The notes under the pieces were generated by a model. That model had not been told where the DNA came from. It did not search any database and saw only the letters and a list, made by a program, of their open reading frames with translations. Shown here one piece after another: positions 2,342 to 26,346 of a stretch of 34,875 bases of DNA (position 1 is the stretch's first letter; each line of letters starts with the position of its first letter). Position numbers and translations under genes: made by a program. The stretch is from Paracoccaceae bacterium (GTDB lineage: Bacteria; Pseudomonadota; Alphaproteobacteria; Rhodobacterales; Rhodobacteraceae): assembly GCA_026982275.1 (NCBI GenBank), contig JALSHK010000006.1, positions 1-34,875 on the forward strand, given 5' to 3'.

Positions 2342-2377
2342 CCCGAAGGCGGGCAAAAGCAACCACAGGAAGAAGCA

Positions 2378-2866
2378 ATGTCTGGCAAGGATGACAGAGT
2401 TATGGGAATTGAAGGTTTGGCCAAGTATCTGAACTTGTCGAAATCAACGGTATACAAGCTGGCCCAGGAGGGCTCTTTGCCGAGTCAGAAGGTGGGAAAG
2501 CATTGGCGGTTTCGGCAGGAGACCGTAAACCGCTGGCTTGATGGCGAGCTGGCGGGCAAGTCGACGGTGGGGGTGGTTCGCCCCGCGCAGGCGCCAGAGC
2601 CGGCGGCAGCAGAGTCTGCAGGAGGGCTTTTGCTCGATAGCTTTGACAACCGTCTCACCAAGGCCCAAATCGAGAAGCTCAAGGGGCGCTGGATCGAAAC
2701 GGTTGACCAGTTTTTCTCCATTGCATCAACGCAGGCGGGCGCAGCGGGTCTGGCGGCATTGCTGGGCATGTCGAATGAGGAATTTTCGCCATGGCTGACG
2801 GCTTTTGAAGAAGATATTTTGTCGGACAAGGGTGCCGCAACAAAAGATGAAGGTGGTGGTGGGTGA
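2378..2866 (+). CDS. Excisionase/MerR-superfamily helix-turn-helix DNA-binding protein with an uncharacterised C-terminal domain
   Basis: 162-aa ORF. The N-terminus MGIEGLAKYLNLSKSTVYKLAQEGSLPSQKVGKHWRFRQETVNRWL matches the pattern of the excisionase-family HTH (HTH_17-like: LS.stvY.l...G.lP..k.G..wrF....i..Wl). An alternative start exists at the ATG at 2402. This is the first gene of the operon. Confidence 0.8.
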   Translation: MSGKDDRVMGIEGLAKYLNLSKSTVYKLAQEGSLPSQKVGKHWRFRQETVNRWLDGELAGKSTVGVVRPAQAPEPAAAESAGGLLLDSFDNRLTKAQIEKLKGRWIETVDQFFSIASTQAGAAGLAALLGMSNEEFSPWLTAFEEDILSDKGAATKDEGGGG

Positions 2867-4110: not shown

Positions 4111-4122
4111 ATCGGAGTCCTT

Positions 4123-4710
4123 ATGAAATCTCTCATTGACCTGATCCGGAAATTGCTCAGGCTCGGGCCTGCAAATCCGGCGCAAGCCAGCCTTGAAAAG
4201 CTAGAGCTGATCAAGCAGAGCAATATGGATAGCCTTGAGGCGCTGAAGGACCAGATCCGCGATCTGGTGGCGCGGATTGGCCAGAAAAAGGCCGAGCTTG
4301 ATGACACCAAGATCCCCGCGCTTCGCAATACGATCGAGCGTGAAATCGGCGAGCTTTTGAATGAAGTGGAGCGGTTTAGAACCCGCGAGGATTATATTGT
4401 CCGCAATATCACACGCATTTCCAAGCTGGTAGAGAAACTCCTGCAAAATCAGATTGCGCGGGAGCAGGGTGTATCTGAAGGCATAATAGAAGATACCACC
4501 CTTGATACCGAAGAAGTGTTGGCCAGCATGGAAGAGGAAGACAGGGCCATGGAGCAGATGGAAAGCCGCAGATACAGGCCGCTGAATGCTTTAGAGGCCG
4601 AACCGGCCCGCGAGGCGGAGATTTCACTCGAGGCGCGGTTGCGCGAAGTCGGTATTGGGGAGGACGCAGCTAGGCCCGGGAAAAAGCCGAATTTGGACGT
4701 CGAAGAATAG
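4123..4710 (+). CDS. Coiled-coil protein, probable ESCRT-III (Snf7/CHMP)-like subunit with C-terminal MIM1-like motif
   Basis: 195-aa ORF with a GGAG RBS 8 nt upstream. It appears all-helical, with a basic/neutral N-terminal half and a strongly acidic C-terminal half (IIEDTTLDTEEVLASMEEEDRAMEQME). The near-C-terminal EISLEARLREVG fits the MIM1 consensus (D/E)xxLxxRLxxL. It lies directly upstream of a clearer ESCRT-III homologue and a MIT-AAA ATPase. The CDS itself is confident; the family call is moderate. Confidence 0.55.
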   Translation: MKSLIDLIRKLLRLGPANPAQASLEKLELIKQSNMDSLEALKDQIRDLVARIGQKKAELDDTKIPALRNTIEREIGELLNEVERFRTREDYIVRNITRISKLVEKLLQNQIAREQGVSEGIIEDTTLDTEEVLASMEEEDRAMEQMESRRYRPLNALEAEPAREAEISLEARLREVGIGEDAARPGKKPNLDVEE

Positions 4711-4743
4711 GCAACAAACATTGCGCAACGGGAGGATAATGAA

Positions 4744-5388
4744 ATGGCATTTAATAAAATTTTCAAAAGTCAGAAAGATCGGGTCCGGGAAGAAAAACGC
4801 AAAATTCTCCGTGCCACTAATCAGTTACAACGGGGTATTGACCAATGTAATCGAAAGGCCGATTTTTTCAGGGCTGAAATGGAAAAATCCCTCAAGCTTG
4901 CAAAGAAATACGCGGCTGAGGGCAATCGTGATATGGCCCGGAGTATTGCTAATAAAATCAGGTCTCACAAAATTCGCATTGCGAAAGTGGAAATGAATGC
5001 CGCTGTGATGGATAAGCGAAAGCTGCAGGTGGATATGGCCGGCACCCAAAAGGAATTTACCGAAGCCATCGGCCAGTTGAACGAGCTGGTTAAATTAGAC
5101 CCGAATGCCTTTATGGATGTTGTGGACGATGAAGCAAAACTGGCCGAGGACCAAACCGAAATCGATACGTTATGGGAGCAGCTTTACACGCAAGACATGG
5201 CAGAGGTGGAATTTGCCGGTGGGCCGATTGAAAGTGTTGACGAGATTCTGAGCAATTTGGAGGCGGAGGTCAGTGCGGAAATTGGCGGAACCGTGTCTGA
5301 GACCGGACAGCGTGACCGGGAGGCGCAGCTTAGCAAGATCAATGCGGGCATAGAAAATATCGAAAAGCTGATGGAGAAAAACAAGTGA
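4744..5388 (+). CDS. ESCRT-III (Snf7/Vps2/CHMP family)-like protein
   Basis: 214-aa ORF with a GGAGGA RBS 7 nt upstream. MAFNKIFKSQKDRVREEKRKILRATNQLQRGIDQCNRKADFFRAEMEKSLKLAKKYAAEGNRDMARSIANKIRSHKIRIAK aligns by eye with the Vps2/CHMP2 alpha1-alpha2 hairpin (FGK..tpqE.lr...R.l.R..ReleRe..kle..ekk...eiKk.AkkGn...Ak.lAkdlvr.rk). The acidic distal part, with VDEILSNLEAEVSAEIG, resembles the CHMP alpha5 region (DEIVNKVLDEIGVDL). Confidence 0.7.
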   Translation: MAFNKIFKSQKDRVREEKRKILRATNQLQRGIDQCNRKADFFRAEMEKSLKLAKKYAAEGNRDMARSIANKIRSHKIRIAKVEMNAAVMDKRKLQVDMAGTQKEFTEAIGQLNELVKLDPNAFMDVVDDEAKLAEDQTEIDTLWEQLYTQDMAEVEFAGGPIESVDEILSNLEAEVSAEIGGTVSETGQRDREAQLSKINAGIENIEKLMEKNK

Positions 5389-6488
5389 CTTTGTTGACCG
5401 ACAAAAAGGCCGAGCAGGAAAAGCTTGCCGAAATCGCGTTGCAAAGCAAGGATTTCAAGGCCGCTTTCTTGCATACTGCATATGCGGCCAAGCTGGCATA
5501 CAAGCTGGCCGCAGCAACGGAGGGGGTTGTTTCCCAAGCCTATATAAAAAATGGTGGAAGGCTGGCCGATGCGGCCGGAAAATTGCAAAAAGCCAGTAAA
5601 AACCAGCAGGCCGAGCAGGAGAGAACACTGGAGGGGACGGATAAAGACGCGGTGCAAACCAGCCAGTGGCAGATGACCAGAAAGCCGGATGTGCGCCTTG
5701 ATGATGTGGCGGGGTTGACGGAGGTGAAGGCCGCTTTGCAACAGGATGCGATTTTGCCCTTCGAGTATCCCGAAGTTTATGAGCGCTACAAGCTGGCTGG
5801 CGGCGGCGGGGTGCTTATGTATGGCCCGCCCGGCACGGGTAAAACCTTTATTGCCAAGGCGGTAGCCGGGGAGCTGAAGGCTGCGTTTTTCTCGGTGGAT
5901 CCTTCGCAGATCAAGGGAAAATATGTGGGCGAGACCGAAAAGAACATGCGCGCCCTTTTTGAAGCGGCGAGACAGCACGAGCGGGCGGTTATCTTCTTTG
6001 ACGAGGTGCATTCGCTTTTGCCCAGGCAGCGTGGCACCGGGGTAAATGCTGTCACGATGTTTTTAACCATGATGGACGGGATCACCAGTGATAGCGGTAA
6101 AACCATTTTGCTGGTTCTCGGGGCGACGAATCATCCCGATATGATGGACCCTGCTACTTTGCGTTCCGGACGCTTCAGTAAGCACATTTATGTGGGGCTG
6201 CCCGATATCGAGGCCCGGGAGTCCATCGCGAAATATTGCTTTCGGGATGTTCCATTGGACGGCGGGTTTCCATTTGCGGAGGCGGCCGCACGTATGCAGG
6301 GGTTCAGCGGGGCCGATGTGGCAGCGGTTTGTAAGAAAACAAAAGCCGCTGTGGCTATGCGGGATATTCGGGAATCCGCCAATGGGCGGGTATCTGGCGA
6401 GGATTTTTTCGAGGCTATATCGGGTTTTACACCAACGGTAACCGAAAAAGATGTGGCTAAATTCAATGAGTGGCGCGGCAAAAGCTAA
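5385..6488 (+). CDS. Vps4-like AAA+ ATPase (classical/meiotic clade) with N-terminal MIT-like helical domain
   Basis: 367-aa ORF with a GTG start in a GTGA overlap. Motifs seen are Walker A GVLMYGPPGTGKTFIAKAVA, Walker B VIFFDEVHSLL, sensor-1 VLGATNHPD, and an Arg-finger region LRSGRFSKHIYVGLP (compare Vps4 RRFEKRIYIPLP). The ~75-aa N-terminal helical region (LAEIALQSKDFKAAFLHTAYAAKLAYKLAAA...) is consistent with a MIT 3-helix bundle. The AAA+ call is very confident; the Vps4/MIT call is moderate. Confidence 0.85.
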   Translation: MTLLTDKKAEQEKLAEIALQSKDFKAAFLHTAYAAKLAYKLAAATEGVVSQAYIKNGGRLADAAGKLQKASKNQQAEQERTLEGTDKDAVQTSQWQMTRKPDVRLDDVAGLTEVKAALQQDAILPFEYPEVYERYKLAGGGGVLMYGPPGTGKTFIAKAVAGELKAAFFSVDPSQIKGKYVGETEKNMRALFEAARQHERAVIFFDEVHSLLPRQRGTGVNAVTMFLTMMDGITSDSGKTILLVLGATNHPDMMDPATLRSGRFSKHIYVGLPDIEARESIAKYCFRDVPLDGGFPFAEAAARMQGFSGADVAAVCKKTKAAVAMRDIRESANGRVSGEDFFEAISGFTPTVTEKDVAKFNEWRGKS

Positions 6489-9400
6489 GTGCGGTAAAGC
6501 TGCGAGTGACGAGTATTTCTATGGATGAAGACGGCAAAACACAAGGCGATGACCCGGGGATTGTAGATCACGGCAAAGAAATGCCGGCCAATTCGGAGGA
6601 CTCCGCACAAGCTGATGATACCCCGACCGATGATGTTTTGGAGGGAGACGTGCCTGATGTCACGGTGCCGCTTGAAGATGCGCAGGACGATGGATTTGAT
6701 GATGAATATATGGAAGATGAATCCTGGGAAGATGATTCATATTGGGATTTTGACAGGCTTTCTGCGGATATCGACCAGTTCACCGGGCGCTCGGAGTGGA
6801 GTTTGAATTTGGAGCCAAGCCCGGCAGACCGGGAAATGCTGGCGCGCATTATATCCGGGACTGGCCTTTGTATTGTGCCCGATATGCACGACAAAGAGCG
6901 AGAATTACTGATGAGGTGGCTCTCCAGCATGGCCGAAAGCCAGCAAATATTCTGCGCCCGTCCGCTGGAAGGGGCCAGAACGTCGGAAATGGTACTGCTC
7001 TCGCAAATGGTTGCGTGGCACAATGACCAACAAAGCACGCGCGCGTCTGCCTGCTATGTAGTTGATCCGCACGAGCATCCAATTTTTATCAGCGATACCG
7101 AAATGGCAAATTTCCTTGCGGAGCTGAAAAAAGCCGGCATTTGCATTTTGCTTTTCTCGCGTGGCAACAGCCACGCAAGCTTGAAAAACAGAGGCGCAAC
7201 ACTGTGGCGTCCGGATTTCTACAGCTATTGGTGGCGCTGCTTTACCGAAGCGTTTTTCGAGGTGGAAAGCCCGGATGTGGTCGAAGGCGAGTTTGAGCGT
7301 GCGGCGGGGCTTTTGGAAGCCAAGCGCCCGAGCTTGCTAGGCCGCGCCCCGACGCGGGCGAAAATATTGCGGCTCCGGCGGTTGATTTTGGAGTCTCCGG
7401 AGATTCCGGATCGGGAGAGTGATCTTGGGGATGCGATCCAGCAGGTGATGGATGCGTTTGAAGCGCGCCCGAGCGCTGATGGCTCCCGCCTGCGAGAAGC
7501 CCATAACGAGGTGTTCCGGATTTCACCGGACCAGATGGCACAAATGCGCGAGAAAGGAGGAGGAAAGGCGCTTCTGGAGCCCGAAGCCACGGCGCTGTTT
7601 GTGGCATGGAACTGTTTGAAAAACAACGAAGGCAAGCCCGTACAGTTGATGGATTTCGAAGAGGTTTTCTCCATCCAGCTTCGGAATATGGAGGCTGAAC
7701 AAAAAGCAATTATGGCCAATGCCGCGCGGGAAAATCCGGGCGGGAAAAACAAAAAAAAGGACCGCCCGAGCTTTGATGCAGGGCAATATTTGCGGCATCG
7801 TTTATTTGCCAGCCAGGGCGATATGATGCTCGAATATATCGGATTGGACGTAAATTCCTGCCCGGTAAAAGGTAAGCAGATCACGTTTCGCCATCCGGAC
7901 CTGCTTGACCATCTGGAAGATATTTTCAACCGCCGCCGTGCCAATTATGCGGCCGCCCAGATAGACCGGTTTTTTGTAGATCAGAAAATATGGGAAGACG
8001 GGCAAAGCCGCCTCGGGGCTTATGCCAATATGCTTATGGTTCTGAAATTCAGACAATACGGGCCGATCTCGGACCTCAATGTGGCCAAGCGCTGCGTTGA
8101 TGAAATTTTGAAAGATTTCAAGCCGGGTCCGGATGAGAGCCAGAGCCACAAAGCCGGTAGCAGGTCGGCGGAGAGGCGTCGCTACAAGGTGCTGGAAAAA
8201 CGCTATCTGCGGGTGGTCGAGTTTCTCATGCTCTGGTTTGACGAGCAACAAAAGCTTGCGCCGGATGCGGTGGAAGAGACGGCCCGCGCATTCAAGGATT
8301 TTGTAACCTTGCTGTCAAAGCAGTTGATGAAGCGCGGGGGATGGCTGGATTTCGTATTTCTGTTTATGCATATTGCGCGGCATCGGCCCGAACTGATTGA
8401 TGTGTCGGCTATATTGCGTATGGTAAACGAGCGTGCGCCTTTTGCGACCAAGTGGGACATCCTCAGCATTGTGGAAACCGAGGCTCGCAAGCAGACTGGC
8501 AACGAGCTGCAATACCGGATTTTCCGGTTTTTGGTCTCCGATATTGCCAAAACCGTGGATGACAAGCGGCATCTGGGTGTTTTTCGAGATGCGTTTCTTG
8601 CGGGGCTGGCGCTCAGGGTTATTCCGGCGGGGGTGCGGCGGTTAAAAGCAGTGGATTATGAAAAAGGCAGCCTGCAATTATCGGATGCGATGCTGGAACA
8701 GATCATAACAGCGAAAGATGGAATAACGGATCTCGTTGCGGTAATGACAGCGCCGCGGGTTCGCAACTATTTGCAGAACCTTTTGAACCGGAAACGTAGA
8801 AACGAAGTTTTGGACTGGTTTACCTTGCAGGAATTCATGCGCATCGAAGAAATGTGTTATGCGATGCAGATCAAGCCGTTAGAGCGTGCAAAAGACAGTA
8901 AATCCGATCAGAAATCCCACGAGGATTTTCATGAAGACCTTTACCGCGCCTATATGGAAGAGGTGCGGGAAATGACCACGCTGGTGGAGGGTCTGCCGGT
9001 TCTTAGCCGCGTCAATACGCGCAATACTGGCGGGAGCGCTGTTGGGACGGCACGGGCGCGGGTAGTTAAAATGAAGCGTGGCGGATCGGATTTGATTATT
9101 CCGGTATTACGCAAACATTTTGAAAAATCAAAGCAGCTGGACAGCCTGAATAGCCTGAACCTGCTGGTTTTTGTGGAATTGCATGGCGTATTGCTCAGCG
9201 TGGGGCGCACGGAGATTGCCGGGGAGATACTGGAGGCCCTTAACGTCGCGAAGGTCGCAGCTTCAGGGGCTGAGGAGCAGCGCGAGATTCGCGGCTTCAG
9301 CAAAGCGTTTGACGCCCGCATTAAGGCGGCAAAGCTTGTGCAGAAACGAGGGTTGGTGGCCATGGTGAAAAATACGCGACACGAGTTGAAAACGGGGAAG

Positions 9401-9505
9401 GTCTCGACGGAATATTGCACGGCTTTCGAGGCATATTTGCGAAAAAGATACGGATATATTGACAATTTTACGCTTCGAGGAACAAGCGTCAGGAGGACAG
9501 AATGA
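6470..9505 (+). CDS. Large hypothetical protein (about 1000 aa) with a highly acidic N-terminal region; no motif recognised
   Basis: 1011-aa ORF from the GTG at 6470, which overlaps the Vps4-like gene by 19 nt. An alternative ATG at 6521 (MDEDGKTQGDD...) would give 994 aa. The N-terminal ~90 aa are D/E-rich (DDTPTDDVLEGDVPDVTVPLEDAQDDGFDDEYMEDESWEDDSYWDFD), and the rest looks mainly helical. I found no Walker A or other catalytic motif. Confidence 0.75.
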   Translation: MARQKLSAVKLRVTSISMDEDGKTQGDDPGIVDHGKEMPANSEDSAQADDTPTDDVLEGDVPDVTVPLEDAQDDGFDDEYMEDESWEDDSYWDFDRLSADIDQFTGRSEWSLNLEPSPADREMLARIISGTGLCIVPDMHDKERELLMRWLSSMAESQQIFCARPLEGARTSEMVLLSQMVAWHNDQQSTRASACYVVDPHEHPIFISDTEMANFLAELKKAGICILLFSRGNSHASLKNRGATLWRPDFYSYWWRCFTEAFFEVESPDVVEGEFERAAGLLEAKRPSLLGRAPTRAKILRLRRLILESPEIPDRESDLGDAIQQVMDAFEARPSADGSRLREAHNEVFRISPDQMAQMREKGGGKALLEPEATALFVAWNCLKNNEGKPVQLMDFEEVFSIQLRNMEAEQKAIMANAARENPGGKNKKKDRPSFDAGQYLRHRLFASQGDMMLEYIGLDVNSCPVKGKQITFRHPDLLDHLEDIFNRRRANYAAAQIDRFFVDQKIWEDGQSRLGAYANMLMVLKFRQYGPISDLNVAKRCVDEILKDFKPGPDESQSHKAGSRSAERRRYKVLEKRYLRVVEFLMLWFDEQQKLAPDAVEETARAFKDFVTLLSKQLMKRGGWLDFVFLFMHIARHRPELIDVSAILRMVNERAPFATKWDILSIVETEARKQTGNELQYRIFRFLVSDIAKTVDDKRHLGVFRDAFLAGLALRVIPAGVRRLKAVDYEKGSLQLSDAMLEQIITAKDGITDLVAVMTAPRVRNYLQNLLNRKRRNEVLDWFTLQEFMRIEEMCYAMQIKPLERAKDSKSDQKSHEDFHEDLYRAYMEEVREMTTLVEGLPVLSRVNTRNTGGSAVGTARARVVKMKRGGSDLIIPVLRKHFEKSKQLDSLNSLNLLVFVELHGVLLSVGRTEIAGEILEALNVAKVAASGAEEQREIRGFSKAFDARIKAAKLVQKRGLVAMVKNTRHELKTGKVSTEYCTAFEAYLRKRYGYIDNFTLRGTSVRRTE

Positions 9506-11988: not shown

Positions 11989-11990
11989 CT

Positions 11991-12776: not shown

Positions 12777-12779
12777 CCC

Positions 12780-17477: not shown

Positions 17478-17877
17478 CACCCCGCCAAAACCGGATAGTT
17501 TGCGCGCTGGCTTTACTTATAATGGTAATGTTTCGGACGCATTGGCGCATTTTGAAAGCGAAAACCAGAAGGTGGAAAATGCACTTTCCAACCTTTCACA
17601 ACATGAGAAATCTTTTATTGAAGCCCGAAAAGAAGTGTTGGGCAAGATTGTAAAAACTCGCCGCCGGCAAAGCTGGCGCTTGAGGCGGGGGTCTTTATGG
17701 CTGCGCTGGCTCGGGATGCAGCGCATAATGGTTGAGCTGCGTATCTTCTTGACCAATATTCTGTCTTTATTTCTATTTTTTATTGGTTGGTTGATCATGG
17801 TGGCGATCACTTTGGCAACAATCGCCTTCGGGATCTATCTGTTTGTGCAAATTATCGAGGCGCTTGTTAATGGATAA
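17470..17877 (+). CDS. Small membrane protein (135 aa): helical N-terminal part, basic amphipathic linker, C-terminal hydrophobic hairpin
   Basis: The ATG overlaps the upstream gene by 8 nt. RRRQSWRLRRGSLWLRWL is followed by a ~40-residue hydrophobic stretch, ILSLFLFFIGWLIMVAITLATIAFGIYLFVQIIEALV, which is long enough for two TM segments. Confidence 0.7.
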   Translation: MTDTPPKPDSLRAGFTYNGNVSDALAHFESENQKVENALSNLSQHEKSFIEARKEVLGKIVKTRRRQSWRLRRGSLWLRWLGMQRIMVELRIFLTNILSLFLFFIGWLIMVAITLATIAFGIYLFVQIIEALVNG

Positions 17878-18973: not shown

Positions 18974-21900
18974 AATGGCCATTCCCTCCCTTTGATGAGG
19001 AAAACGGTTTGCCACGCCATGGGATGGACCGCTGGTTTGCCCGACGAACAAAAAACCTGCGGTTTGTCAACCGGCTGGATCCGGTTTGGGGAGCGATTGC
19101 GCTTTTGCTCATAATCGCGGTTATGCTGGTGATCGGCATTGGCGGGTTGCTATATCCGGAGCCTGAGAAAACGGTGCGCGTAGAAGATAGGCGTATTTTG
19201 CAATCCTTTACCGATCCCGATGATTGCTTCGTTAGTGCCGCACCAACGGCAAATGGCCAATTGCTGGTTTCTCTGTCGCGTGCGGCACGCTGCCGGAGCG
19301 ATATCGCTTCTGGCGGGGTCACTTTATATGATCCTATTTGGCGCGTTTTTTCCCCCCAAACCCTGCCTTTCGCCGATGACGAAGGCTATTCGCTTTCCGA
19401 TACAATCGGCAATGTTGCCAACTCGGTCTGGATTAGAGGCGATCAGGACGGGCTTGCACGCTGGACAGAAGGCCGCTGGGCTGTTTGGGCCTCCCAGACT
19501 TCGATGCAAATTGGCGAGCGATTGTCGATGGATCGCGATATTGTTGCGACAGCGCAAACGAAAAATGATGGTGAATCCATGTTTGCTACAAGGACCGGCG
19601 CATTTTCTGTTTACGATACGTCCGACTCGAGATGGCAAAACTATGGATACTTGCCGGGGACCGGCACGGTAAGCGCGCTGGAGTGGAGCGACAAAGGGGT
19701 GTGGGTCGCTCGTGGCTCGGGATTATGGTTTGCGGATTTTAGCCTGGGCGCAGGTCTGGGCGAGCCTCGCCAGATTTCCAGAGATCCGGTGTTAAGCCTT
19801 GACTTGACGGAGCAAGGCGAAGCTGTGGTGTTATATTCGAAAGCCTGTGAAGGACAGCCTTCGAGAGTGGCTGTGGAGCGCGGGGGCTGTCAGGCTCTGG
19901 TGCGCTATACCAGCGACGCACGACGCTATTACGCAATGCTGGATACAACGGCGGCTCCGAGATTGCTCGATTCCCGTGCTGTGCAATTTGTTGCGGCAAT
20001 CGGTGCCGAGCTGGTGTTGGCGGGAAAAAATGGTATATGGCGCTATAACACCACGACCAGAAGCTGGACCCGTCCGGAAAAGCGCAGCGTAACGGTTCTG
20101 GAAACCGGCCCTGATGGCACCATAGCCTATGGCGGACGTGGCTGGATTGCAATGCAGGCACCCCTGATGCGTACCACCGTTACTTCCAGCTTCCCGAACC
20201 AGAGCCGGACGAGTGTTATGGTATCTTTTGACAGCCGGAACCGTCCGTTATTCACGGATAATCAAGGCGCCCTTATCCGGCTTGAACGATCCGGCACACT
20301 GGCTTTTCTATTTGAGCCAACCGCACCGGGGGCTATCGAAAGCATGTTTGTGGCCAGCAGCCCCACCCATGATTATTTTATCGGTGAGTCGGGGCAGGTG
20401 GCGCTTGACCGGGAAACGCGAAGCTATACGAGGGCAGGTTCCAATTCGCAATTGTCAAGCATGGCAAATGCTACGCTCTATGCCCAACTGGGCTCATTGG
20501 CGCTTGGATTTGTGCCTACAGGCACAACGGACCGCGGGAGCCTTGTAGTCTTTGATATGTCTACCCCGTCTTTATCGGTTTCGCGCCCGGTCGAGAGCGC
20601 AAAAGGCCTGACATTGGCAACAGAAGCACAAGCCTTTTTTACCGATCGTTTGGGTCGGCTTTTTGGGGGCCGGATCAATTTTCGCCAACCATCCGGCATA
20701 TCGGTAGAGGGTTTGATGCCTGCACAGCCCAATACCGGCCCGGGAGAGCGCCAGGTCGACGATGTGACAAGGCTTGGTGACCGTTTTGTTCTGAGCGGCG
20801 CATGGGGAATCCGGATTTATAATCCCGTTACACGAGGCTGGGAAACGGTTTCCTCGATCGACACCCGAACGGTTGCCGATCTGGGGCAGGGCGGAAAGAT
20901 ATTGTCGGTAGGCAAAGATGGCATATTGCGGACGTATCAACCCTCGTCAGACCGCTGGCTGGCAAGCACCGTTATTCCGAACAGGCCGCTGGCTTTCAAT
21001 AGCGAGCGCGATATTCTTGACACTCTCGTTTCCCCGCTTGGCCAAATTGTATTTTTGGCGAAAACGGAAAATGGTGGTGTATTGCAGGTATACGACCCTC
21101 GGACACGCCGGATCGTGTATACATCTAATATAAACGCTGGCGCGGTGACCAATGGTAAAATCCTGACATTCATATCCGGGCAAAACTGGATGCTGCGCTT
21201 GGGAGCGCGGGCCTTCACAGCCGATGGTGCCTTGCCTCTGGCACCTGCCAGCCGCGGTGTGGTTTCCGGCTGGGCTGAATCCGGCAAAGTGTTTGTGACC
21301 GTCGAGCAAGACCAGCGGACCGGATTGAAATTCCTGCATCGGCGCCAGATTGGAAACGATCGCTCCACGTGCCTTTATCGCGCGAACACTATTGATGCTT
21401 CCCCGCAGCTTGATGCGTTTATGCCTTCGCAAAACAGGCTGGTAACCGTAACCGAACAAGGTGTTTGGCTGAATAATTTATCCACACGCAGGTGGAATAA
21501 AGTCAACCTGCCGGCCTCGTCGTATCAGGTTGGCATGTCTGGCAATATGTTATGGGCGCGCTCGACCGGGCGGCGGGCGGCCAATCTGGTATACCGGATC
21601 GATCCGCAAGCCGCCCCCGCATATGACAGCTGTGACCCGAATGCCACAGGCATTGCAAGCGTTGCTTTTGAAAATGCTGTTATCCTGCCGGAAAATGGTA
21701 CCGTTTACCGGATAACTTCTGTTCAAGATGGCGGCTCTCCCCAGGTTGTCAAAGAAACCATCGGAGGGCGGGCAAGCGTGCAGCTTGCACCTGCCGGCGC
21801 GCCACCGGGTGCGGGAGCTCCCTTGCGAAGCTTTGTGCACGAGGCCACGAACTCACTGTGGCTTGCCTATCCCGGGGCATTGGCGCGTTATGAGTTTCGC

Positions 21901-24900
21901 GCACGGAAATGGACGCAATTTCCGTTGCCCCGCAGTCGGGATTGGTCGCAAGTGTTGATCGAAACCGGAGAGGGTACGCTGGAGGGCAAGCTGGTTGCCA
22001 GCTACATCGCCGATGCAGGGTGGATTCAACTTCGGGTGCCCTATGGCGCTGGATCCGCGAGTGAAATGGAAGTGTTTGACCGTGAAATCGTTAATCCTGG
22101 CCCTGTGCCGGGTGGGCGATTGGCCGGAAATCTGCAAGAAATCAGGCAATCGGCATCGGCGCTGTATTTCAGGTTTCCCGACCGGATTGTCAGCATGAAC
22201 CGGCGTAACCGTTCCTGGAACCCGGCTTGGCCGATCGCCGATGAAAATGCCGAAATGGCCATTATAAACAATCGGTTTATGGTTTATGCGCCTTCCCTGA
22301 ATCGTCTGTATTTTCAGCGGGGCCGCGGCACCGTTGGCATTGGTGCGGCGTTGCGGGAGGTTGTAGTGCCCGAGGGGCAAGTGCCAATGATTGATCGTGA
22401 CGGGTTGATAAGCTGGATTGCGGCTGATGGTGCGTTAGTATCCTGCAGCGCGGCGGCGATCTGCCAAAACGTGGTAAATCCGGTGCCCGAGATCGATTTG
22501 CGTGGTGTGTCCTCTATCCGGCAACTTGGCGAGGATTTTCTTCTCGCCGGGGATGACGGGCTGGGTATTGTGGTAACGCGAGACCCTGACCAACGATTCC
22601 GGCGACTCACGCAAGGCGCAAAGCCGCTGACGGGGCAAAATACGCTTGGCCGGTTGCGCACAGAAACTATCGGGGTGCTGCGCCGATCAAAAAATGGCGA
22701 AAACCTGTTTATGGCCAGTCCGTCAAGCGGCTTTTGGGTGGTTGATGGGCCAATGCCTCCCTTCTTGCCTACTATGAACAAAGCTACATCATTCGGGCTG
22801 AGCGGGGTATTTAATCCGGATGACAACTTGTATATTGACACCAGCAAGCAGTTGGTTGGCGAGGATGGTATAATCGGGCCGCTTCCGGCAGGAATTTCCG
22901 GTCAGGATATCATGGCCATTGGGCGTTTTGGCGATGACTACTGGTTTCAAACCCTTGACCGCATTCAGGTTTTTTCTCCGGATTGCATTTCTCCAGATGT
23001 TGTGGTGGATGTGCCGGAAGATCCCGAACAGGACATCGAGGCTCCCGCGCGTTGCATAGAACGTGACTTTCCGACCTTGGAGGGTCAGATAATTGCTTAT
23101 ATTGAAGCCGGGAACTCTGGGCAGAATTTCATCGCCATACTTCAGGATGGTTCAGCGCAGAGCTTTGATGGCCGTTGGCAGCAAATCCGCCCTGCCTTTC
23201 AACTTCCGCTGGCTACAATACAGGACTTTTTACAAGCCACTACCTTTGTTCGGCCAGACGGGAAGCGCAGTTTTTTTGCGCCATTATCCGTTGAGGAAAG
23301 CGTGGACGGGTCCCGATTTACGGTTGTCGAGCCCAAACCGGGCGGTACGAACCGGCGGCGCAGCTATGTCGCGTTTCAAGCCGGTACACTGGCAGCCCTC
23401 GATCTTGGATGGTTGCGTTTTGATGCGGCCCGCAAAGTGTTGGTTTTGGGCCGTGGGGAACAGAAAAGCGAGATGCCTCTCGACGCAGCCTTCAACTCTG
23501 ACCAGCGGTTTTTAGCGTTTGCGTGGTCTGCACCGGCCCCGCAGCCTGACGGGACGGTGATTGTGGCCCTGCAGGATGGGCAGCTACGGCTGCAAAATCC
23601 GGCTAGCCAATCATCTCTGGTTACAGCAGCCTATGTCAGGCAGCGCGGTATCTTGGATGCAGCGGTGGTGCCGGATACAGGTGGCCATTGGCAAGGTCCG
23701 CGCTTTTTGCCATTTCAGGCAGAAAATACCCTGTTGTCGCCTGAGAGGCTCTATCAAAAAGAAGCATTTTCCATCCTGCAAGATCGGCGCGAGACCGGCG
23801 TGCGCCTGCGCCACGGGGTTAACCGCGTGCTGGACCGGGCAGGCTTCTTGTGGGACCGGTTCAATGATATCGGACTGGGGCCAAATTTGGAAGTAATTTT
23901 GCAAACCGCCCTTGGGCCTGTGGAAATGGATGCCCCTGAAGCCGCACTTTTTGAGGGTATGGTGGCCTGGAGTGCTGACACGCTGGATGTGATAGAGGCT
24001 GCGACGGAACGCCGCCTGCCGGAAAACAAATTCGAATGGAGACAGGATCGTCGTAATGGCATTGCCTCCCTTACTCGGGATACGCTGTTTTCGGCAATTT
24101 ATGCCAATGGCACCCTCTCCGTCTCGACCTTGGCAGGATTTGGCCAGCGGCGCGGATTTGGTCCTGTTGCTACGCTTGATAATGCCGCCGACCCAGTCGA
24201 CTTGCTATTGTCACGCGGAGATGAGCCGCTCGTTTACGGCCTTTTGAATGGCGATGTAATGATTGCCAATGAGCAGTCCGGGCTTGAGATTGCGGATCCG
24301 GCGATAGCCGCAGAGGTGATGCAGCTTGAAGCGTGGCGGGTGGGGCCGTTATTTGCCCGTGCGAAAAATAGCGGTCGCACGCAGTTCGAGGTGCGACTGG
24401 CTGAAACCGGCGGGCAAGAAAGCCCGGCAATCGGGCCATCCCGTAGATTTTTGTTTGATTCATTCCTGCAGGCGCGGTTCGCACCAGATCAAGCGCTTTA
24501 TCTGGTGAGCAATGCCGGGTTGATGCGCTCTGCTAGCCGCAGTCCGGATCTGGCAGGAATGGAATTGTTAAGCAGCAATACGGGAAACAGGAGCTATGAC
24601 CTCGTAACACGTGAGAATGATCTTTATGTTCTGGCCCGCAAGCATGGCCGGCCGGTGGGCTGTGAGCAGATTTCAGAAAGCGGACAAAGGCAGTGTGATG
24701 TGCAAATGCCACTACTGTCGATGGTGCAGACGACCTTATCCGATGATCGGGGCCTGACGGCTAAAGCAGGCGAAACCGGGTGGGTTTTTTCAGCTTCGGA
24801 CCCCGATACCAGCATGAATCGCAGGGTTAGCCTTGAAAACGGCAGGTTTTCTTTTGATCGGATACAGGCGGTCGCGGTTTGTAATGGCGCGTTTTTTATG

Positions 24901-26346
24901 ATCAACCGTGATGGCGATGTATTGCGAGCGCCATCTGCCACGCGCTGGCCGCAGGCCCGGTTTGTTGAAAGGCAGCCGGCTGACAGTCGGTTGTTTTGCA
25001 AGTCTGACAGGCCGATAGATCCTTTACCCGACGGGCTGTGGCTCCAGCGGCCCGATGGAATTTGGCTTAATTTGCCGGCTGATGGAGAGAGGTTCCGGCG
25101 CGCAGCTCCGGAATACGGCCGGCTGGCCAGCCAGGTTTTTTCCATTCGCGCTTCGAGCCGAGTATCAGCTATCAGGCGCAGTGATGAAAATGGGGGGCTA
25201 TCCCAAACGGGAACCCGGGCGCTCCAGATTACCCAGCGATTCGGGGCGGGAGCGCTCGCGCCTGTCACCACTGTTTTTTCAAAAGGACCAGCCCTTGAAA
25301 TAGACACTCCGACAGGGTTTTTCGGCGCCGGGCAGCGGATTTGGGCAATTACGCCAGACGGGATTGTCGATTATGGGCCGGAAGATCGAAGTGTCGCCTA
25401 TTTCACACCGGAACGTGCTCCGCGGGTCCGGCTGCCGGCTGGATGCGTGGTTGGCTCTGCCCGTCGTGTAAGTGTAAGCGAAACAGAGCTGTATTGCGAA
25501 AATGGAACAATGGTGCGGGCTGGCGTGACGGGCGGCGCACTTTCCCTTTCAGCACCCAGCTTCGCGCTTGCAACATGGACAGCCCGCTCGGGGCAGGTTT
25601 CGGTAAGCAGTGATCGGCAGGGCATCCAGCATCTGGCCTTAAGTGGTCAGAAAATATCACCCGCGATAACAACGGGCGGCTTCCCGTTTGATTCTGTTCG
25701 CCAAGTCCTTATTGGCGGAGATGGGGGGTATAATCTGATAACAGGCATCGGGTGGTGGGGGTTTAGTTCCAGCGGGGTTTCGCTTGCCGAAAATGGCGGG
25801 AACAGCATAGCGCTTCAGCGCAGCTTGTTGCTGCGCCTTGGTCGGCCGGAGTTGGTGCAGGCTGCTGAAGTCAACGAAACTCTTGACCCTTACGGACTTT
25901 GCTTGGCGTCCGAAAACAGCACGGTGGTTGATATCTCTATCACCGAAGACGGGTACACGGCGGCGCTCTCGCGCAACAGGGTTTGCGAGCCGTATCTGGG
26001 GCGAGATAGGTTACGTTCTTTTCACAAAACAAGTGATGGACGGTTTTTTTCGCGGCTATGGATAGGTGGTCAGCGAAACCGTATTGATTCATTGGTGAAC
26101 GGACGATTTGACAGCGATCGCATCCTGGAACTGCCCAATGCACAATATATTTCCGGCGAGATGGAAGCCGGAGACGGGCTTTGTGCGCCGACAGCCCTTG
26201 CTGGCGTTTCGGTCTGGGGAAATTCGACATCCCAGCGCGGGCGCGTATTTTCCGGAGCTTGTGGCCCGCTTTTGCCAATTGCCCCGATTTATGTGGATAA
26301 CAACTATTTTGCCGTTTTTTCCGGAGCTTTATACAGGCGCGAATGA
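18970..26346 (+). CDS. Giant (2458 aa) N-terminally membrane-anchored protein built largely of beta-propeller-type repeats
   Basis: An uninterrupted 7.4-kb ORF whose ATG overlaps the upstream stop (ATGA). A basic N-terminus (RWFARRTKNLRF) is followed by a single TM segment, AIALLLIIAVMLVIGIGGLLY. Recurrent blade-like motifs then follow: VWIRGDQDGLARWTEGRWAVW, GVWVARGSGLWFADF, GKNGIWRYNTTTRSWTRP, GAWGIRIYNPVTRGWETV, GKDGILRTYQPSSDRW, VLQVYDPRTRRIVY, GVWLNNLSTRRWNKV. These resemble Reg_prop/WD-like propeller blades. No catalytic motif recognised. Confidence 0.8.
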   Translation: MKWPFPPFDEENGLPRHGMDRWFARRTKNLRFVNRLDPVWGAIALLLIIAVMLVIGIGGLLYPEPEKTVRVEDRRILQSFTDPDDCFVSAAPTANGQLLVSLSRAARCRSDIASGGVTLYDPIWRVFSPQTLPFADDEGYSLSDTIGNVANSVWIRGDQDGLARWTEGRWAVWASQTSMQIGERLSMDRDIVATAQTKNDGESMFATRTGAFSVYDTSDSRWQNYGYLPGTGTVSALEWSDKGVWVARGSGLWFADFSLGAGLGEPRQISRDPVLSLDLTEQGEAVVLYSKACEGQPSRVAVERGGCQALVRYTSDARRYYAMLDTTAAPRLLDSRAVQFVAAIGAELVLAGKNGIWRYNTTTRSWTRPEKRSVTVLETGPDGTIAYGGRGWIAMQAPLMRTTVTSSFPNQSRTSVMVSFDSRNRPLFTDNQGALIRLERSGTLAFLFEPTAPGAIESMFVASSPTHDYFIGESGQVALDRETRSYTRAGSNSQLSSMANATLYAQLGSLALGFVPTGTTDRGSLVVFDMSTPSLSVSRPVESAKGLTLATEAQAFFTDRLGRLFGGRINFRQPSGISVEGLMPAQPNTGPGERQVDDVTRLGDRFVLSGAWGIRIYNPVTRGWETVSSIDTRTVADLGQGGKILSVGKDGILRTYQPSSDRWLASTVIPNRPLAFNSERDILDTLVSPLGQIVFLAKTENGGVLQVYDPRTRRIVYTSNINAGAVTNGKILTFISGQNWMLRLGARAFTADGALPLAPASRGVVSGWAESGKVFVTVEQDQRTGLKFLHRRQIGNDRSTCLYRANTIDASPQLDAFMPSQNRLVTVTEQGVWLNNLSTRRWNKVNLPASSYQVGMSGNMLWARSTGRRAANLVYRIDPQAAPAYDSCDPNATGIASVAFENAVILPENGTVYRITSVQDGGSPQVVKETIGGRASVQLAPAGAPPGAGAPLRSFVHEATNSLWLAYPGALARYEFRARKWTQFPLPRSRDWSQVLIETGEGTLEGKLVASYIADAGWIQLRVPYGAGSASEMEVFDREIVNPGPVPGGRLAGNLQEIRQSASALYFRFPDRIVSMNRRNRSWNPAWPIADENAEMAIINNRFMVYAPSLNRLYFQRGRGTVGIGAALREVVVPEGQVPMIDRDGLISWIAADGALVSCSAAAICQNVVNPVPEIDLRGVSSIRQLGEDFLLAGDDGLGIVVTRDPDQRFRRLTQGAKPLTGQNTLGRLRTETIGVLRRSKNGENLFMASPSSGFWVVDGPMPPFLPTMNKATSFGLSGVFNPDDNLYIDTSKQLVGEDGIIGPLPAGISGQDIMAIGRFGDDYWFQTLDRIQVFSPDCISPDVVVDVPEDPEQDIEAPARCIERDFPTLEGQIIAYIEAGNSGQNFIAILQDGSAQSFDGRWQQIRPAFQLPLATIQDFLQATTFVRPDGKRSFFAPLSVEESVDGSRFTVVEPKPGGTNRRRSYVAFQAGTLAALDLGWLRFDAARKVLVLGRGEQKSEMPLDAAFNSDQRFLAFAWSAPAPQPDGTVIVALQDGQLRLQNPASQSSLVTAAYVRQRGILDAAVVPDTGGHWQGPRFLPFQAENTLLSPERLYQKEAFSILQDRRETGVRLRHGVNRVLDRAGFLWDRFNDIGLGPNLEVILQTALGPVEMDAPEAALFEGMVAWSADTLDVIEAATERRLPENKFEWRQDRRNGIASLTRDTLFSAIYANGTLSVSTLAGFGQRRGFGPVATLDNAADPVDLLLSRGDEPLVYGLLNGDVMIANEQSGLEIADPAIAAEVMQLEAWRVGPLFARAKNSGRTQFEVRLAETGGQESPAIGPSRRFLFDSFLQARFAPDQALYLVSNAGLMRSASRSPDLAGMELLSSNTGNRSYDLVTRENDLYVLARKHGRPVGCEQISESGQRQCDVQMPLLSMVQTTLSDDRGLTAKAGETGWVFSASDPDTSMNRRVSLENGRFSFDRIQAVAVCNGAFFMINRDGDVLRAPSATRWPQARFVERQPADSRLFCKSDRPIDPLPDGLWLQRPDGIWLNLPADGERFRRAAPEYGRLASQVFSIRASSRVSAIRRSDENGGLSQTGTRALQITQRFGAGALAPVTTVFSKGPALEIDTPTGFFGAGQRIWAITPDGIVDYGPEDRSVAYFTPERAPRVRLPAGCVVGSARRVSVSETELYCENGTMVRAGVTGGALSLSAPSFALATWTARSGQVSVSSDRQGIQHLALSGQKISPAITTGGFPFDSVRQVLIGGDGGYNLITGIGWWGFSSSGVSLAENGGNSIALQRSLLLRLGRPELVQAAEVNETLDPYGLCLASENSTVVDISITEDGYTAALSRNRVCEPYLGRDRLRSFHKTSDGRFFSRLWIGGQRNRIDSLVNGRFDSDRILELPNAQYISGEMEAGDGLCAPTALAGVSVWGNSTSQRGRVFSGACGPLLPIAPIYVDNNYFAVFSGALYRRE

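Follow-up and report, generated by a model that had tools for sequence, protein, structure and literature searches.

An operon joining a Snf7/Vps4-like module to a bpMoxR cassette: a candidate composite conflict locus in bacteria

The bpMoxR family was defined for the ATPases of MoxR-vWA-beta-propeller ternary systems, which were described computationally (Kaur, Burroughs, Iyer & Aravind, eLife 2020, PMC7159879) and were reported to 'show no conventional effector modules' (PMC7159879). The Esr pathway of Actinomycetales provides experimental support for the sensing of extracellular attackers by modules of this kind (bioRxiv 10.64898/2026.09.08.750141). A bacterial Vps4-like AAA+ ATPase with a TPR-6TM partner has also been described, in which snf7 is reported to be displaced by an unrelated TPR and 6TM gene (Ravi et al., mSystems 2024, PMC11237479). 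This ATPase was proposed to have passed from Archaea into bacteria, Verrucomicrobia and Planctomycetes among them, and was predicted to act near the membrane (PMC11237479). According to a 2025 review, a Vps4-type ATPase appears to be absent in bacteria (PMC7619361).

The window, namely, the whole stretch of DNA analyzed here (34,875 nucleotides), carries 14 co-directional ORFs on the + strand in a 24-kb operon (2378-26346 in the ORF listing). The gaps at four junctions are 2, 3, 12, and 33 nt, while overlaps of 4-35 nt occur at the remaining junctions. A separate gene call on the same contig returned the same genes, except for a g6 start at window position 6521, which leaves a 32-nt gap. A preliminary description had claimed a packed operon of 14 ORFs, and the coordinates bear this out, with gaps of 33 nt or less. 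It had also proposed a single undescribed 14-gene system. The genes do form one operon; however, the locus is composed of two modules, g1-g5 on the left and g6-g14 on the right, and g6-g14, or at least g9-g14, belong to the bpMoxR ternary systems that were already described computationally. The features are as follows.

3..659, - strand: gene for a caspase-like protease (Peptidase_C14, E 5e-17), cut at the contig end and divergent from the operon
695..2161, - strand: divergent gene for a caspase-like protease (Peptidase_C14, E 3e-16) with C-terminal Sel1 repeats
2264..2291, + strand: promoter-like site between the divergent genes (intergenic region of 216 nt), agreeing with the consensus at 10 of 12 positions; weak, because such sites are not enriched relative to shuffled sequence
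2378..2866, + strand: g1, HTH_17 DNA-binding domain and a C-terminal domain of ~55 aa
2863..4110, + strand: g2, predicted cytoplasmic papain-family (C1) cysteine protease
4123..4710, + strand: g3, 195-aa coiled-coil protein
4744..5388, + strand: g4, Snf7-family ESCRT-III protein, by profile
5385..6488, + strand: g5, MIT-AAA Vps4/CdvC-like ATPase
6470..9505 (from 6521 in the gene call), + strand: g6, 1011 aa, opens the nine-gene cassette
9502..11988, + strand: g7, 828 aa, cassette member
11991..12776, + strand: g8, 261 aa, cassette member
12780..13865, + strand: g9, MoxR-type AAA+ ATPase of the bpMoxR family
13862..15388, + strand: g10, 508 aa, always 3' of bpMoxR
15381..17477, + strand: g11, 698 aa, a globular region of ~540 aa followed by a C-terminal coiled coil
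17470..17877, + strand: g12, 135 aa, two C-terminal hydrophobic helices (hydropathy scan)
17843..18973, + strand: g13, 376 aa, two hydrophobic helices (hydropathy scan)
18970..26346, + strand: g14, 2458 aa, one N-terminal transmembrane helix, proposed sensor

The right module shares several features with the ternary systems. g9 matched bpMoxR (PF20030, E 7.3e-47; AAA_5, E 1.2e-20), and its P-loop, GPPGVAKS, has Ala where Gly is usual; this atypical P-loop, with Ala before Lys-Ser, was noted by Kaur et al. in vWA-MoxR subsystem 4 (PMC7159879). Both also have a very large partner protein that spans the membrane and additional conserved linked genes without a match to any known superfamily, and they overlap in taxa (Proteobacteria, Planctomycetes, and Verrucomicrobia). 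However, a vWA domain was not detected in any cassette protein of the present subclade, which instead has, always at the same 5' position, a TIR gene, a CHAT gene, or an ESCRT-III/Vps4/papain module. Moreover, g6-g8 stand where Azospirillum and Paracoccus have a MoxR(AAA_3)-DUF58-x-VWA-x block. The g9-g14 core extends to these two taxa without any ESCRT genes, and g7 is not homologous to the VWA protein found there at the same position. Like Esr, the locus combines a predicted giant sensor exposed at the surface with a MoxR ATPase and outputs that vary, with homology compared for MoxR alone; in contrast, the Esr vWA protein, the kinase/phosphatase pair, and the FHA outputs feeding Esx secretion are all absent here. 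g9 had previously been called RavA/MoxR. Like RavA, it is a MoxR-class AAA+ ATPase; however, the NCBIfam RavA model, with a cut-off of 681 bits, scored 118 bits and matched the AAA core only (residues 18-218). Therefore, g9 is not RavA, and the ViaA/vWA partner of the RavA-ViaA system is missing from the locus.

Four other loci (L090, L091, L092, and the P0137 locus) repeat the nine genes in this order, with MoxR proteins that are 42-54% identical. Homologues of g6-g11, g13, and g14 follow one another in L090, L091, and L092 (MoxR, 47-54% identical), and gene sizes match the cassette in the P0137 locus (MoxR, 42%). The five proteins of 1011, 828, 261, 508, and 698 aa, noted earlier for lacking a recognizable motif, indeed belong to no Pfam, NCBIfam, or PADLOC family. 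Searches with g6 and g7 found no family; homologues of g6 occupy the same position in L002, L090, L091, and L092, and L002 and L090-L092 also carry homologues of g7 (25-55% identical) and g8. Homologues of g10 are present in L002, L090-L092, L094, and L095, and none of its ~45 representative relatives had a Pfam family or a PDB match. L091, L092, and L094 have homologues of g11 and g13; the ~90 representative relatives of g11 share no Pfam family, and their PDB matches were coiled-coil noise. ORFs of 130-155 aa lie at the position of g12 in L092, L094, and the P0137 locus. The prediction that g12 and g13 are small membrane proteins agrees with their two hydrophobic helices each.

The g14 product had been regarded as a membrane-anchored beta-propeller giant. 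The anchor was retained: the hydropathy scan placed a transmembrane helix at ~aa 37-59 (window 19078-19146), preceded by a short cytoplasmic tail. However, the propeller was reduced to one Kelch_6 match below threshold (17.1 bits; cut-off, 25.3) plus weak internal repeats (aa 60-1260). From this predicted topology, the huge Trp/Gly-rich region is probably outside the cytoplasm. Homologues of 2400-2750 aa close the cassette in L091, L092, L094, L095, and the P0137 locus.

The 5' side of the cassette is variable. The gene directly 5' of g6 encodes TIR_2 in L090, L092, and the P0137 locus and CHAT, which is caspase-like, in L091. The same place in the window and L002 is taken by an HTH protein, a papain-like protease, two coiled-coil proteins, and an AAA ATPase. 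A defense-type context, which had been suggested for the locus, is supported by the caspases in the window and the TIR or CHAT genes at the equivalent position in the sister loci.

The calls of an HTH regulator and a leaderless C1 protease in the left module were confirmed. g1 matched HTH_17 (E 5.8e-14); its NCBIfam MAD1 match fell below the model cut-off. g2 matched Peptidase_C1 (E 1.9e-12) and has the papain-like motifs QGERGTC(138)VAF, GGH(291)AMLVVGY, and RN(314)SW, with Cys138, His291, and Asn314 present; no signal peptide was detected in the protein. The C terminus of g1 (aa 92-146) and the N terminus of g2 share a domain (hhalign probability 78%, E 1.9e-5), and the N-terminal part of g2 (aa 16-79) is a predicted adaptor or pro-region. 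Orthologues of g2 adjoin Snf7/Vps4 genes in L002, L087, and L007.

Two Snf7/CHMP-like proteins had been proposed, and this was upheld for g4. g4 matched Pfam Snf7 narrowly (E 3.1e-6; 27.4 bits, cut-off 27.3), and its family profile, built from 10 members, matched yeast Snf7 (5fd9, E 3.8e-9) as well as CHMP3, CdvB2, and Heimdall ESCRT-IIIB. Judged by these profiles, g4 is a true Snf7-family protein. However, we found no sequence similarity between g3 and any ESCRT-III protein. PDB and Foldseek searches with g3 returned no significant match (rank 1, CHMP1B, E 0.64). An AF2 model from the single sequence (pLDDT 64) has helices at 4-13, 19-60, 65-114, 122-149, and 160-175, and the C-terminal helix is MIM1-like (aa 166-176, window 4618-4650). 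The membership of g3 in ESCRT-III is unproven because the model offers ESCRT-III-like topology alone; g3 may possibly act as a further subunit of the ESCRT-III type, or as an adaptor or substrate of Vps4.

The identification of g5 as a MIT-AAA Vps4-like ATPase was sustained. g5 matched AAA (E 4.8e-37), Vps4_C (E 9e-7), and, nearly end to end, the NCBIfam CdvC model (E 2.6e-53, below the model cut-off). Walker A, Walker B, and the arginine fingers are invariant. In an AF2 model (pLDDT 86), N-terminal helices 2-20, 24-44, and 47-80 form a MIT-like three-helix bundle, and the best PDB match of the N-terminal profile was the MIT domain 2mpk (E 0.0026); the evidence for MIT is moderate. g5 grouped with archaeal CdvC in an NJ tree (100/100 bootstraps), and its AAA domain is, by score, equally similar to Cdc48 D2 and Vps4.

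As in archaeal Cdv and eukaryotic ESCRT-III-Vps4, a Snf7-family subunit lies directly 5' of a single-domain AAA ATPase, which here has the MIT-like bundle, a C-terminal helix, and the CdvC grouping, and is preceded by two small coiled-coil proteins, both with predicted C-terminal amphipathic MIM-like helices. However, the host is bacterial; CdvA, ESCRT-I, ESCRT-II, and a winged-helix partner are lacking; no sequence evidence ties g3 to ESCRT-III; the accompanying genes encode a papain-like protease and caspases (and, in other loci, a four-TM protein of 280 aa); and the context is of the conflict type rather than cell division. The operons of Ravi et al. also have a Vps4-like AAA+ ATPase in bacteria, whereas Snf7 is retained here along with a further conserved coiled-coil protein. 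With PspA/Vipp1, the module shares the ESCRT-III superfamily fold and, as proposed here, both action on the cytoplasmic membrane from its inner side and a connection with envelope stress. In contrast to PspA/Vipp1, a Vps4-type ATPase is paired here, and the g4 profile, with its matches to Snf7, CHMP3, and CdvB2, returned no match to PspA or Vipp1. In the literature searched, we found no description of a module of bacterial Snf7-type ESCRT-III, a Vps4-like ATPase, and a papain-like protease. The combination of Snf7-type ESCRT-III with a Vps4-like ATPase in a bacterial locus runs counter to recent reviews that deny bacteria such machinery.

The explanation that we favor, at slightly better than even confidence, is a composite conflict (immunity-type) locus in which an envelope threat sensor is coupled to a protease-controlled ESCRT-III/Vps4 membrane-remodeling output. 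With g12 and g13, the ~2400 residues of g14 beyond the transmembrane helix would sense insults at the cell surface, for example from a phage, an epibiont, or a predator or through envelope damage. The g9 ATPase, together with g10, g11, and g6-g8, would convert this signal into a thresholded switch. The position beside g6 may be an exchangeable output slot, which is filled here by the self-contained g1-g5 module. Upon activation, the g2 protease, which shares the putative adaptor domain with g1, would be released, and either g2 or the divergent caspases may free g3 and g4 from autoinhibition. We speculate that g3 and g4 then polymerize on the inner surface of the cytoplasmic membrane. The attacked membrane patch may be pinched off or sealed; alternatively, unrestrained polymerization may wreck the membrane in the manner of abortive infection. 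The MIT domain of g5 would bind the C-terminal MIM-like helices, and the polymer would be disassembled or recycled at the expense of ATP.

The adjacency of the modules could also reflect two independent conflict systems that are neighbors in a region resembling a defense island, perhaps co-transcribed and with no functional coupling, because each module exists without the other elsewhere. Conflict systems cluster in islands. The left module occurs without the MoxR cassette in L087, L004, L088, L089, L005, and L007; in MAGs of PVC, Synergistota, and Chloroflexota, it usually lies amid caspases, and L004 adjoins transposases and other conflict genes. Conversely, L090-L092, L094, and L095 carry the cassette alone. 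To the earlier question of whether the same gene set recurs across distant taxa, the answer is yes for each module separately, but not for the full 14 genes, which were found in close relatives only (L002, with Vps4 75% identical, and L093, 96%). Nevertheless, the left module, encoded on the same strand, fills precisely the place of the lone TIR or CHAT gene of the sister cassettes, and a spacer of exactly 32 nt separates g6 from the upstream gene in the window, L002, L090, and L092. The junction is overlapping or minimally spaced, with no terminator-like site on the + strand between g5 and g6, and L002 has kept it at protein identities of 46-75%, even though its g6 and g8 are 54 and 46% identical. 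We regard unrelated neighbors as fairly unlikely.

Housekeeping membrane remodeling, namely, division, vesicle formation, or envelope-stress repair, with the cassette as a chaperone for envelope assembly, is a distinctly improbable alternative to the composite conflict locus. Division, vesiculation, and repair are established roles of ESCRT-III/Vps4 and PspA (PMC7619361, PMC10936438), and MoxR proteins are known as assembly chaperones (PMC9976466). In L005, the g3-g4-g5 triad lies amid housekeeping genes, next to those for RNase PH, signal peptidase II, and hydrogenase. However, the distribution is patchy across phyla; the host appears to be of the proteobacterial type, while the nearest named homologues are from PVC, Synergistota, and Chloroflexota. 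The g3 family is conserved beside Snf7/Vps4 in seven loci, in which the triad was found again, and a Snf7-like gene adjoins or lies near the ATPase in 10 of the 11 loci examined. The neighbors in these loci are Peptidase_C14/CHAT, GYF_2, FGE-sulfatase, DUF4384, kinase, TPR/Sel1, and transposase genes; across the loci compared, sister cassettes included, caspases, CHAT, TIR, GYF, FGE-sulfatase, kinase-TPR proteins, and transposases turn up repeatedly. An exchangeable 5' slot is also typical of conflict systems (PMC7159879).

In eukaryotes, ESCRT-III counters gasdermin and MLKL pores. A parallel role of the ESCRT module in self-protection, repairing membrane damage from an attacker or from the system's own proteases or caspases, with the caspases and the C1 protease as the killers, is very doubtful. 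In its favor, the triad is almost always amid several caspase-like proteases, ESCRT-III superfamily members including PspA mend membranes (PMC7619361), and a dedicated recycling ATPase may suggest a reusable rather than suicidal device. However, the search found no gene for a pore-forming or gasdermin-like protein, the conserved ~280-aa companion of the triad elsewhere (absent from the window) is a four-TM protein without a PADLOC or Pfam family, and sister cassettes have typical terminal effectors, TIR or CHAT, in the slot.

L002 and L087 have homologues of the Sel1-containing caspase (695..2161; 69 and 49% identity, respectively), placed and divergently oriented as in the window; this gene probably belongs to the left module.

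The fourteen co-directional plus-strand ORFs at 2378-26346 (g1 to g14) are packed in an operon-like manner, as is read directly in the sequence. In the ORF listing, neighboring genes overlap by 4-35 nt at 10 junctions, and no gap exceeds 33 nt. Gene calls in L001, a public record covering the left portion of the contig, agree with this layout except for the g6 start, which lies at 6521 and leaves a 32-nt gap after g5. The tightly packed operon of the preliminary description was confirmed in this respect. GC skew is positive along the entire operon. A signal scan, which is weak evidence, placed a promoter-like site at 2264-2291 in the 216-nt divergent intergenic region and found no plus-strand terminator-like site at the g5/g6 junction. 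We infer that g1-g14 are read as one transcript.

This operon comprises two modules, each conserved independently: a left module (g1-g5) and a right module, or cassette (g6-g14). The ESCRT genes of the left module hold the position that is taken by TIR or CHAT genes in sister cassettes. Two caspase-like genes lie upstream:
3-659, minus strand, caspase-like Peptidase_C14, diverging from the operon
695-2161, minus strand, caspase-like Peptidase_C14 with Sel1 repeats, diverging from the operon
These caspases are probably part of the ESCRT/protease module because homologues hold the same divergent position in L002, a close relative of the window, and in L087, a left-module locus. A listed plus-strand ORF at 222-713 overlaps the first caspase gene and is probably spurious.

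The product of g5 matched AAA (E 4.8e-37) and Vps4_C (E 9e-7), and the NCBIfam CdvC model was matched almost from end to end. Walker A, Walker B, sensor 1, and the arginine fingers are invariant across 37 orthologues. In a neighbor-joining tree of AAA domains from the fetched loci, in which sampling was limited and eukaryotic sequences were absent, the bacterial g5 family and archaeal CdvC formed a clade in 100/100 bootstraps, nested among Cdc48 D2 domains. Raw scores for g5 were equally high to Cdc48 D2, and Foldseek likewise does not separate Vps4 from Cdc48 D2. Within this small sampling, g5 has its ATPase motifs intact and belongs to the Vps4/CdvC lineage of classical AAA ATPases with a single AAA domain. 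Pore loop 1 (KYVGETEK, aa 179-186) is presumably nearer to the K[WY]xGExEK of Vps4, katanin, and spastin than to Cdc48 D2. The AlphaFold model (pLDDT 86) has an N-terminal three-helix bundle (2-20, 24-44, and 47-80; pLDDT >90), which a disordered linker connects to the AAA domain; a helix closes the C-terminus. The best PDB match of the N-terminal profile was the MIT domain of chitin synthase (2mpk, E 0.0026), and the VPS4B MIT domain aligned in register (E 0.6). We consider the N-terminus to be a putative MIT domain with moderate confidence, because Pfam MIT itself had no match to g5. The Vps4-like MIT-AAA assignment made previously stands with this qualification. The anti-phage protein IetA was also considered for g5 (PADLOC E 7e-31), but the NCBIfam IteA model scored 104 bits against a cut-off of 510.

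Two Snf7/CHMP-like proteins had been claimed. The claim holds for g4; g3 is a candidate second subunit, for which we found no sequence link to ESCRT-III. The Pfam Snf7 score of g4 is right at the threshold (27.4 bits; cut-off 27.3). A profile of 10 orthologues matched yeast Snf7 (5fd9, E 3.8e-9), CHMP3 (E 9e-4), CdvB2 (E 0.026), and a Heimdall ESCRT-IIIB in the PDB. We concluded that g4 is a Snf7/CHMP-family ESCRT-III subunit, as expected of a Cdv-type system. The family carries a conserved amphipathic helix at its C-terminal end. Assignment to PspA/Vipp1 was rejected; g4 has no PspA_IM30 match in Pfam, and its profile matches Snf7, CHMP, and CdvB rather than PspA or Vipp1. A profile scan of viral contigs gave no Snf7-family matches, and plasmids searched with g4 and g11 by tblastn gave none.

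The coiled-coil protein g3 belongs to a family conserved beside the Snf7 and Vps4 genes. The family profile had no match in the PDB, and its alignment with the g4 family reached an hhalign probability of 0.4%. In the single-sequence AF2 model (pLDDT 64), a short helix at the N-terminus precedes a long hairpin (19-60 and 65-114), which is followed by one helix of 28 residues and another at the C-terminus. The helix order of this low-confidence model is ESCRT-III-like and would be typical of ESCRT-III. Foldseek with the model returned nothing significant, with CHMP1B at rank 1 (E 0.64). A helix with the pattern [IL]xx[RK][LM]xx[LIV] is conserved in the family (EISLEARLREV in g3, aa 166-176); we take this C-terminal helix to fit the MIM1 pattern as a predicted motif. 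The PADLOC match of g3 to LmuB of Lamassu (E 0.004) arises through coiled-coil similarity and was not accepted.

The first two genes encode an HTH_17 protein (g1) and a Peptidase_C1 protein (g2) with no signal peptide, in which the papain-like Cys138, His291, and Asn314 motifs are intact. A domain of approximately 55 aa is common to the g1 C-terminus and g2 N-terminus (hhalign probability 78%, E 1.9e-5):
2651-2815, g1 aa 92-146, shared domain
2908-3099, g2 aa 16-79, shared domain
This sharing suggests that the HTH protein and the protease are linked homotypically; the domain may act as a homotypic adaptor or as an inhibitory pro-region. In L007 (Victivallales), in which the C1 protease is a longer fusion, the domain is a stand-alone ORF of 109 aa (5894-6223) directly before that fusion. 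The HTH of g1 also matches mad1 in PADLOC, but NCBIfam MAD1 scored 61 bits against a cut-off of 80, and g1 was not assigned to it. More generally, scanning g1-g10 for catalogued anti-phage systems (PADLOC 2.0; IetAS, MADS, and Lamassu) gave generic similarity only, and identity with a known PADLOC system was rejected for these genes.

The left module recurs in other bacteria. The g5 family contains approximately 100 full-length relatives (90% clusters; 365-415 aa, 39-95% identity), the named members of which come from Synergistales, Phycisphaeraceae, Thermoguttaceae, and Kiritimatiellia MAGs. A genome scan with the g5 alignment identified at least five bacterial loci (L007-L011) and added Victivallales, Phycisphaerae, Chloroflexota, and Planctomycetales. 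Approximately a dozen contexts were inspected per module. A Snf7-family gene of 214-217 aa directly precedes the ATPase gene in seven independent contexts (L002, L004, L005, L007, L087, L088, and L089), six of which also contain a g3-family gene, and the more distant L009, L010, and L011 have a Snf7-like gene near the ATPase as well. L087 (Vps4 55% identical) contains HTH_17, Peptidase_C1, g3-family, Snf7, and Vps4 genes without a MoxR cassette. Neighbors of the left module are mostly Peptidase_C14 or CHAT proteins, often fused to GYF, Sel1, TPR, or FGE-sulfatase domains; DUF4384, DUF1294, and Ser/Thr kinases also occur. In L004, a contig of 1.1 Mb, the ESCRT/caspase cluster adjoins an IS110-family transposase, an rve_3 integrase fragment, and MC8/CTD12/DUF2326 genes (1-6543), which is a defence-island-like setting.

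A well-conserved four-TM protein of approximately 280 aa was found in all seven contexts; the window holds no member of this family:
L002, 4092-4934, minus strand
L087, 2088-2921, minus strand
L004, 14152-14994
L088, 3928-4776
L089, 11145-11981
L005, 11555-12445
L007, 11581-12432
In this protein, one TM helix at the N-terminus is followed by a globular domain and by three TM helices toward the C-terminus, and the tail ends in '..LEE'; it may be the membrane anchor of the left module. The tail 'L[DE]xEE' of the g3 family resembles this ending. The idea that this neighbor is a gasdermin was rejected: it has four TM helices, and Pfam gave no gasdermin match.

Downstream of the operon are a DUF255 thioredoxin-like gene, an aldehyde dehydrogenase gene, a Rieske/cytochrome b/cytochrome c1 (bc1) operon at 30848-33623, and an ABC transporter. 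We take these to be ordinary chromosomal genes of a proteobacterial type, judging from the known occurrence of cytochrome c1. The bc1 operon points to a host of proteobacterial type. The nearest named Vps4-like relatives are in PVC, Synergistota, and Chloroflexota MAGs, and the data are consistent with horizontal spread of the left module.

In the right module, g9 had been described as RavA-like. This was not borne out. The NCBIfam RavA model scored 118.2 bits against a cut-off of 681 and aligned only over model positions 8-199 of 498, and no vWA neighbor was found. g9 is instead a bpMoxR protein (PF20030, E 7.3e-47) with the P-loop GPPGVAKS. Its orthologues in the cassette loci L090, L091, L092, and P0137 are 42-54% identical, and these loci share one order of gene sizes: approximately 950-1000, 790-880, and 250-265 aa, bpMoxR, and then 480-526, approximately 700, 130-141, 360-458, and approximately 2400-2460 aa. 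Beyond its fifth gene, the L090 cassette is degenerate; the small ORF is not called in L091. BLAST confirmed the homology of g6-g11, g13, and g14 to the cassette loci, and the giant g14 has conserved homologues. The g9-g14 order is kept in these four loci and in Azospirillum (L094) and Paracoccus (L095). The core in Azospirillum brasilense and Paracoccus versutus pBEN consists of bpMoxR, g10, g11, a small ORF, g13, and the giant, with a MoxR(AAA_3)-DUF58-x-VWA-x block in place of g6-g8. The Paracoccus locus lies at 317758-350771 of plasmid pBEN of P. versutus DSM 17099, and both hosts are cultured and genetically tractable. A distant correspondence of g7 or g8 to the VWA protein and the 261-294-aa proteins of these two loci was considered and rejected (hhalign probabilities 0.1 and 1.5%). 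A scan of metagenome contigs with the g7 alignment returned one near-identical contig only (L093).

No family was assigned to g3, g6, g7, g8, or g10-g14 even at E up to 10, and no vWA or propeller family to g6-g14 at the same limit. The putative propeller of g14 rests on a Kelch_6 score of 17.1 bits, which is below the cut-off, and weak internal repeats. A hydropathy scan predicted two hydrophobic helices each in g12 and g13 and one TM helix near the N-terminus of g14. No vWA or propeller family was found in 60 relatives of g11 or 45 of g10, none of the 139 representatives of the two families belongs to a Pfam family, and the g10 and g11 profiles matched nothing in the PDB, so that neither has a structural relative by sequence. 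g10 or g11 as the vWA component therefore found no support in these searches. HMM sensitivity may be too low for a vWA domain of the cassette, because Kaur et al. call these domains divergent.

Kaur et al. (2020; PMC7159879) described systems of a MoxR protein with an odd P-loop (GXXXTAKS), a divergent vWA domain fused to a beta-propeller of approximately four blades, and a third, large component containing a membrane segment and a beta-propeller, with extra linked genes of unknown superfamily. The authors noted no conventional effector in these ternary systems. The window resembles these MoxR-vWA-beta-propeller systems in its bpMoxR with a variant P-loop and in a neighborhood conserved across taxa; g14, with its predicted TM helix and giant homologues, is a candidate for the third component. 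The 14 genes had been proposed as an undescribed system; the right module is already described in this sense, and the left module has no description in the literature searched. The right module is a known, computationally defined kind of system; its subclade, marked by g6-g8 and by a defined slot for effectors, appears to be new.

This slot is the same-strand gene position that directly precedes the g6 homologue. It contains TIR_2 in L090, L092, and P0137, CHAT in L091, and, in the window and L002 (Vps4 75%, g6 54%, and g8 46% identical), the five-gene ESCRT/protease module. The TIR and CHAT proteins are as follows:
L090, 2486-3646, TIR
L092, 2783-3946, TIR
L091, 2727-3989, CHAT
Their C-terminal regions resemble each other weakly and contain an FGE-sulfatase-like 'L..E.EW' motif; the region lies below Pfam detection, and the window proteins yielded no counterpart. 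The distance from the upstream stop to the g6 start is 0 nt in L091 and exactly 32 nt in four loci:
window, 6489-6520
L002, 11099-11130
L090, 3647-3678
L092, 3947-3978
This spacer follows a Vps4-like gene in two loci and a TIR gene in two, and its sequence is not conserved. The module junction is kept over substantial divergence. The independent conservation of the two modules would also fit two unrelated systems lying side by side, a reading to be weighed against the kept junction; we consider it unlikely, although it is the strongest of the rivals.

We lean slightly toward a composite locus that combines a sensor with an output. An envelope event would be sensed by g14 with g12 and g13, bpMoxR with g10, g11, and g6-g8 would turn it into a switch, and the 5' module would be the output. 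The Esr preprint (bioRxiv 10.64898/2026.09.08.750141) provides an experimental precedent for this sensing scheme. The C1 protease and/or the caspases would then free g3 and g4 from autoinhibition, both would polymerise at the cytoplasmic membrane, and g5 would recycle them through a predicted MIT-MIM contact. Proteolysis as the specific trigger is considerably less probable than the composite locus itself. As an outcome, the attacked membrane may be shed or repaired, or the membrane may be damaged lethally. A terminal effector is favored because sister slots hold TIR and CHAT, while repair or scission is favored because of the recycling ATPase and known ESCRT and PspA biology. That same biology would suit housekeeping membrane remodelling, which, set beside the caspase-rich neighborhoods and the TIR and CHAT genes of sister slots, we regard as improbable. 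A self-protective role of the ESCRT module, in place of an effector role, would also involve membrane repair; with TIR and CHAT in the sister slots, it is the least probable reading.

A 2025 review in Curr Opin Struct Biol (PMC7619361) stated that a Vps4-like ATPase is apparently absent in bacteria. The window locus and approximately 100 related protein clusters go against this. Ravi et al. (2024; PMC11237479) reported that Vps4-like ATPases moved to bacteria with snf7 displaced by a TPR-6TM gene, and mentioned bacterial Snf7-AAA+ associations briefly. In the literature searched, coverage of which was partial, we found no description of a bacterial Snf7 and MIT-AAA module among caspases or of a MoxR linkage. 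The Snf7 and MIT-AAA pair spans PVC, Synergistota, Chloroflexota, and a proteobacterial-type genome, almost always amid caspase-like proteases, and bears on the debate over ESCRT origin and horizontal spread. We tentatively propose, with somewhat less confidence than for the composite locus, that several bacterial phyla possess genuine Snf7 and MIT-Vps4 machines, sisters of CdvC, as protease-controlled and exchangeable outputs of immune-type sensors, here replacing TIR or CHAT in the effector slot of a surface-sensing bpMoxR cassette. In that case, bacteria would use ESCRT-III/Vps4 membrane scission or repair against invaders, and the system would be a prokaryotic parallel to the interplay of ESCRT-III and caspase-driven cell death in animals. 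'Effector-less' bpMoxR systems would gain a defined effector slot (TIR, CHAT, or ESCRT), membrane scission or repair is suggested as a possible bacterial immune output, and the locus would offer a tractable bacterial system for the proteolytic regulation of ESCRT-III.

Two further arrangements were observed. In the Victivallales locus L007, genes for three vWA-domain proteins and one caspase come after the ESCRT module (12463-19587), with no MoxR gene. In L009 (Chloroflexota), two paralogous Vps4-like ATPase genes (2244-3440 and 4146-5288) flank the Snf7-like gene, and the first of these (2244-3440) is a deeper branch beside the bacterial family, inside the clade that includes CdvC.
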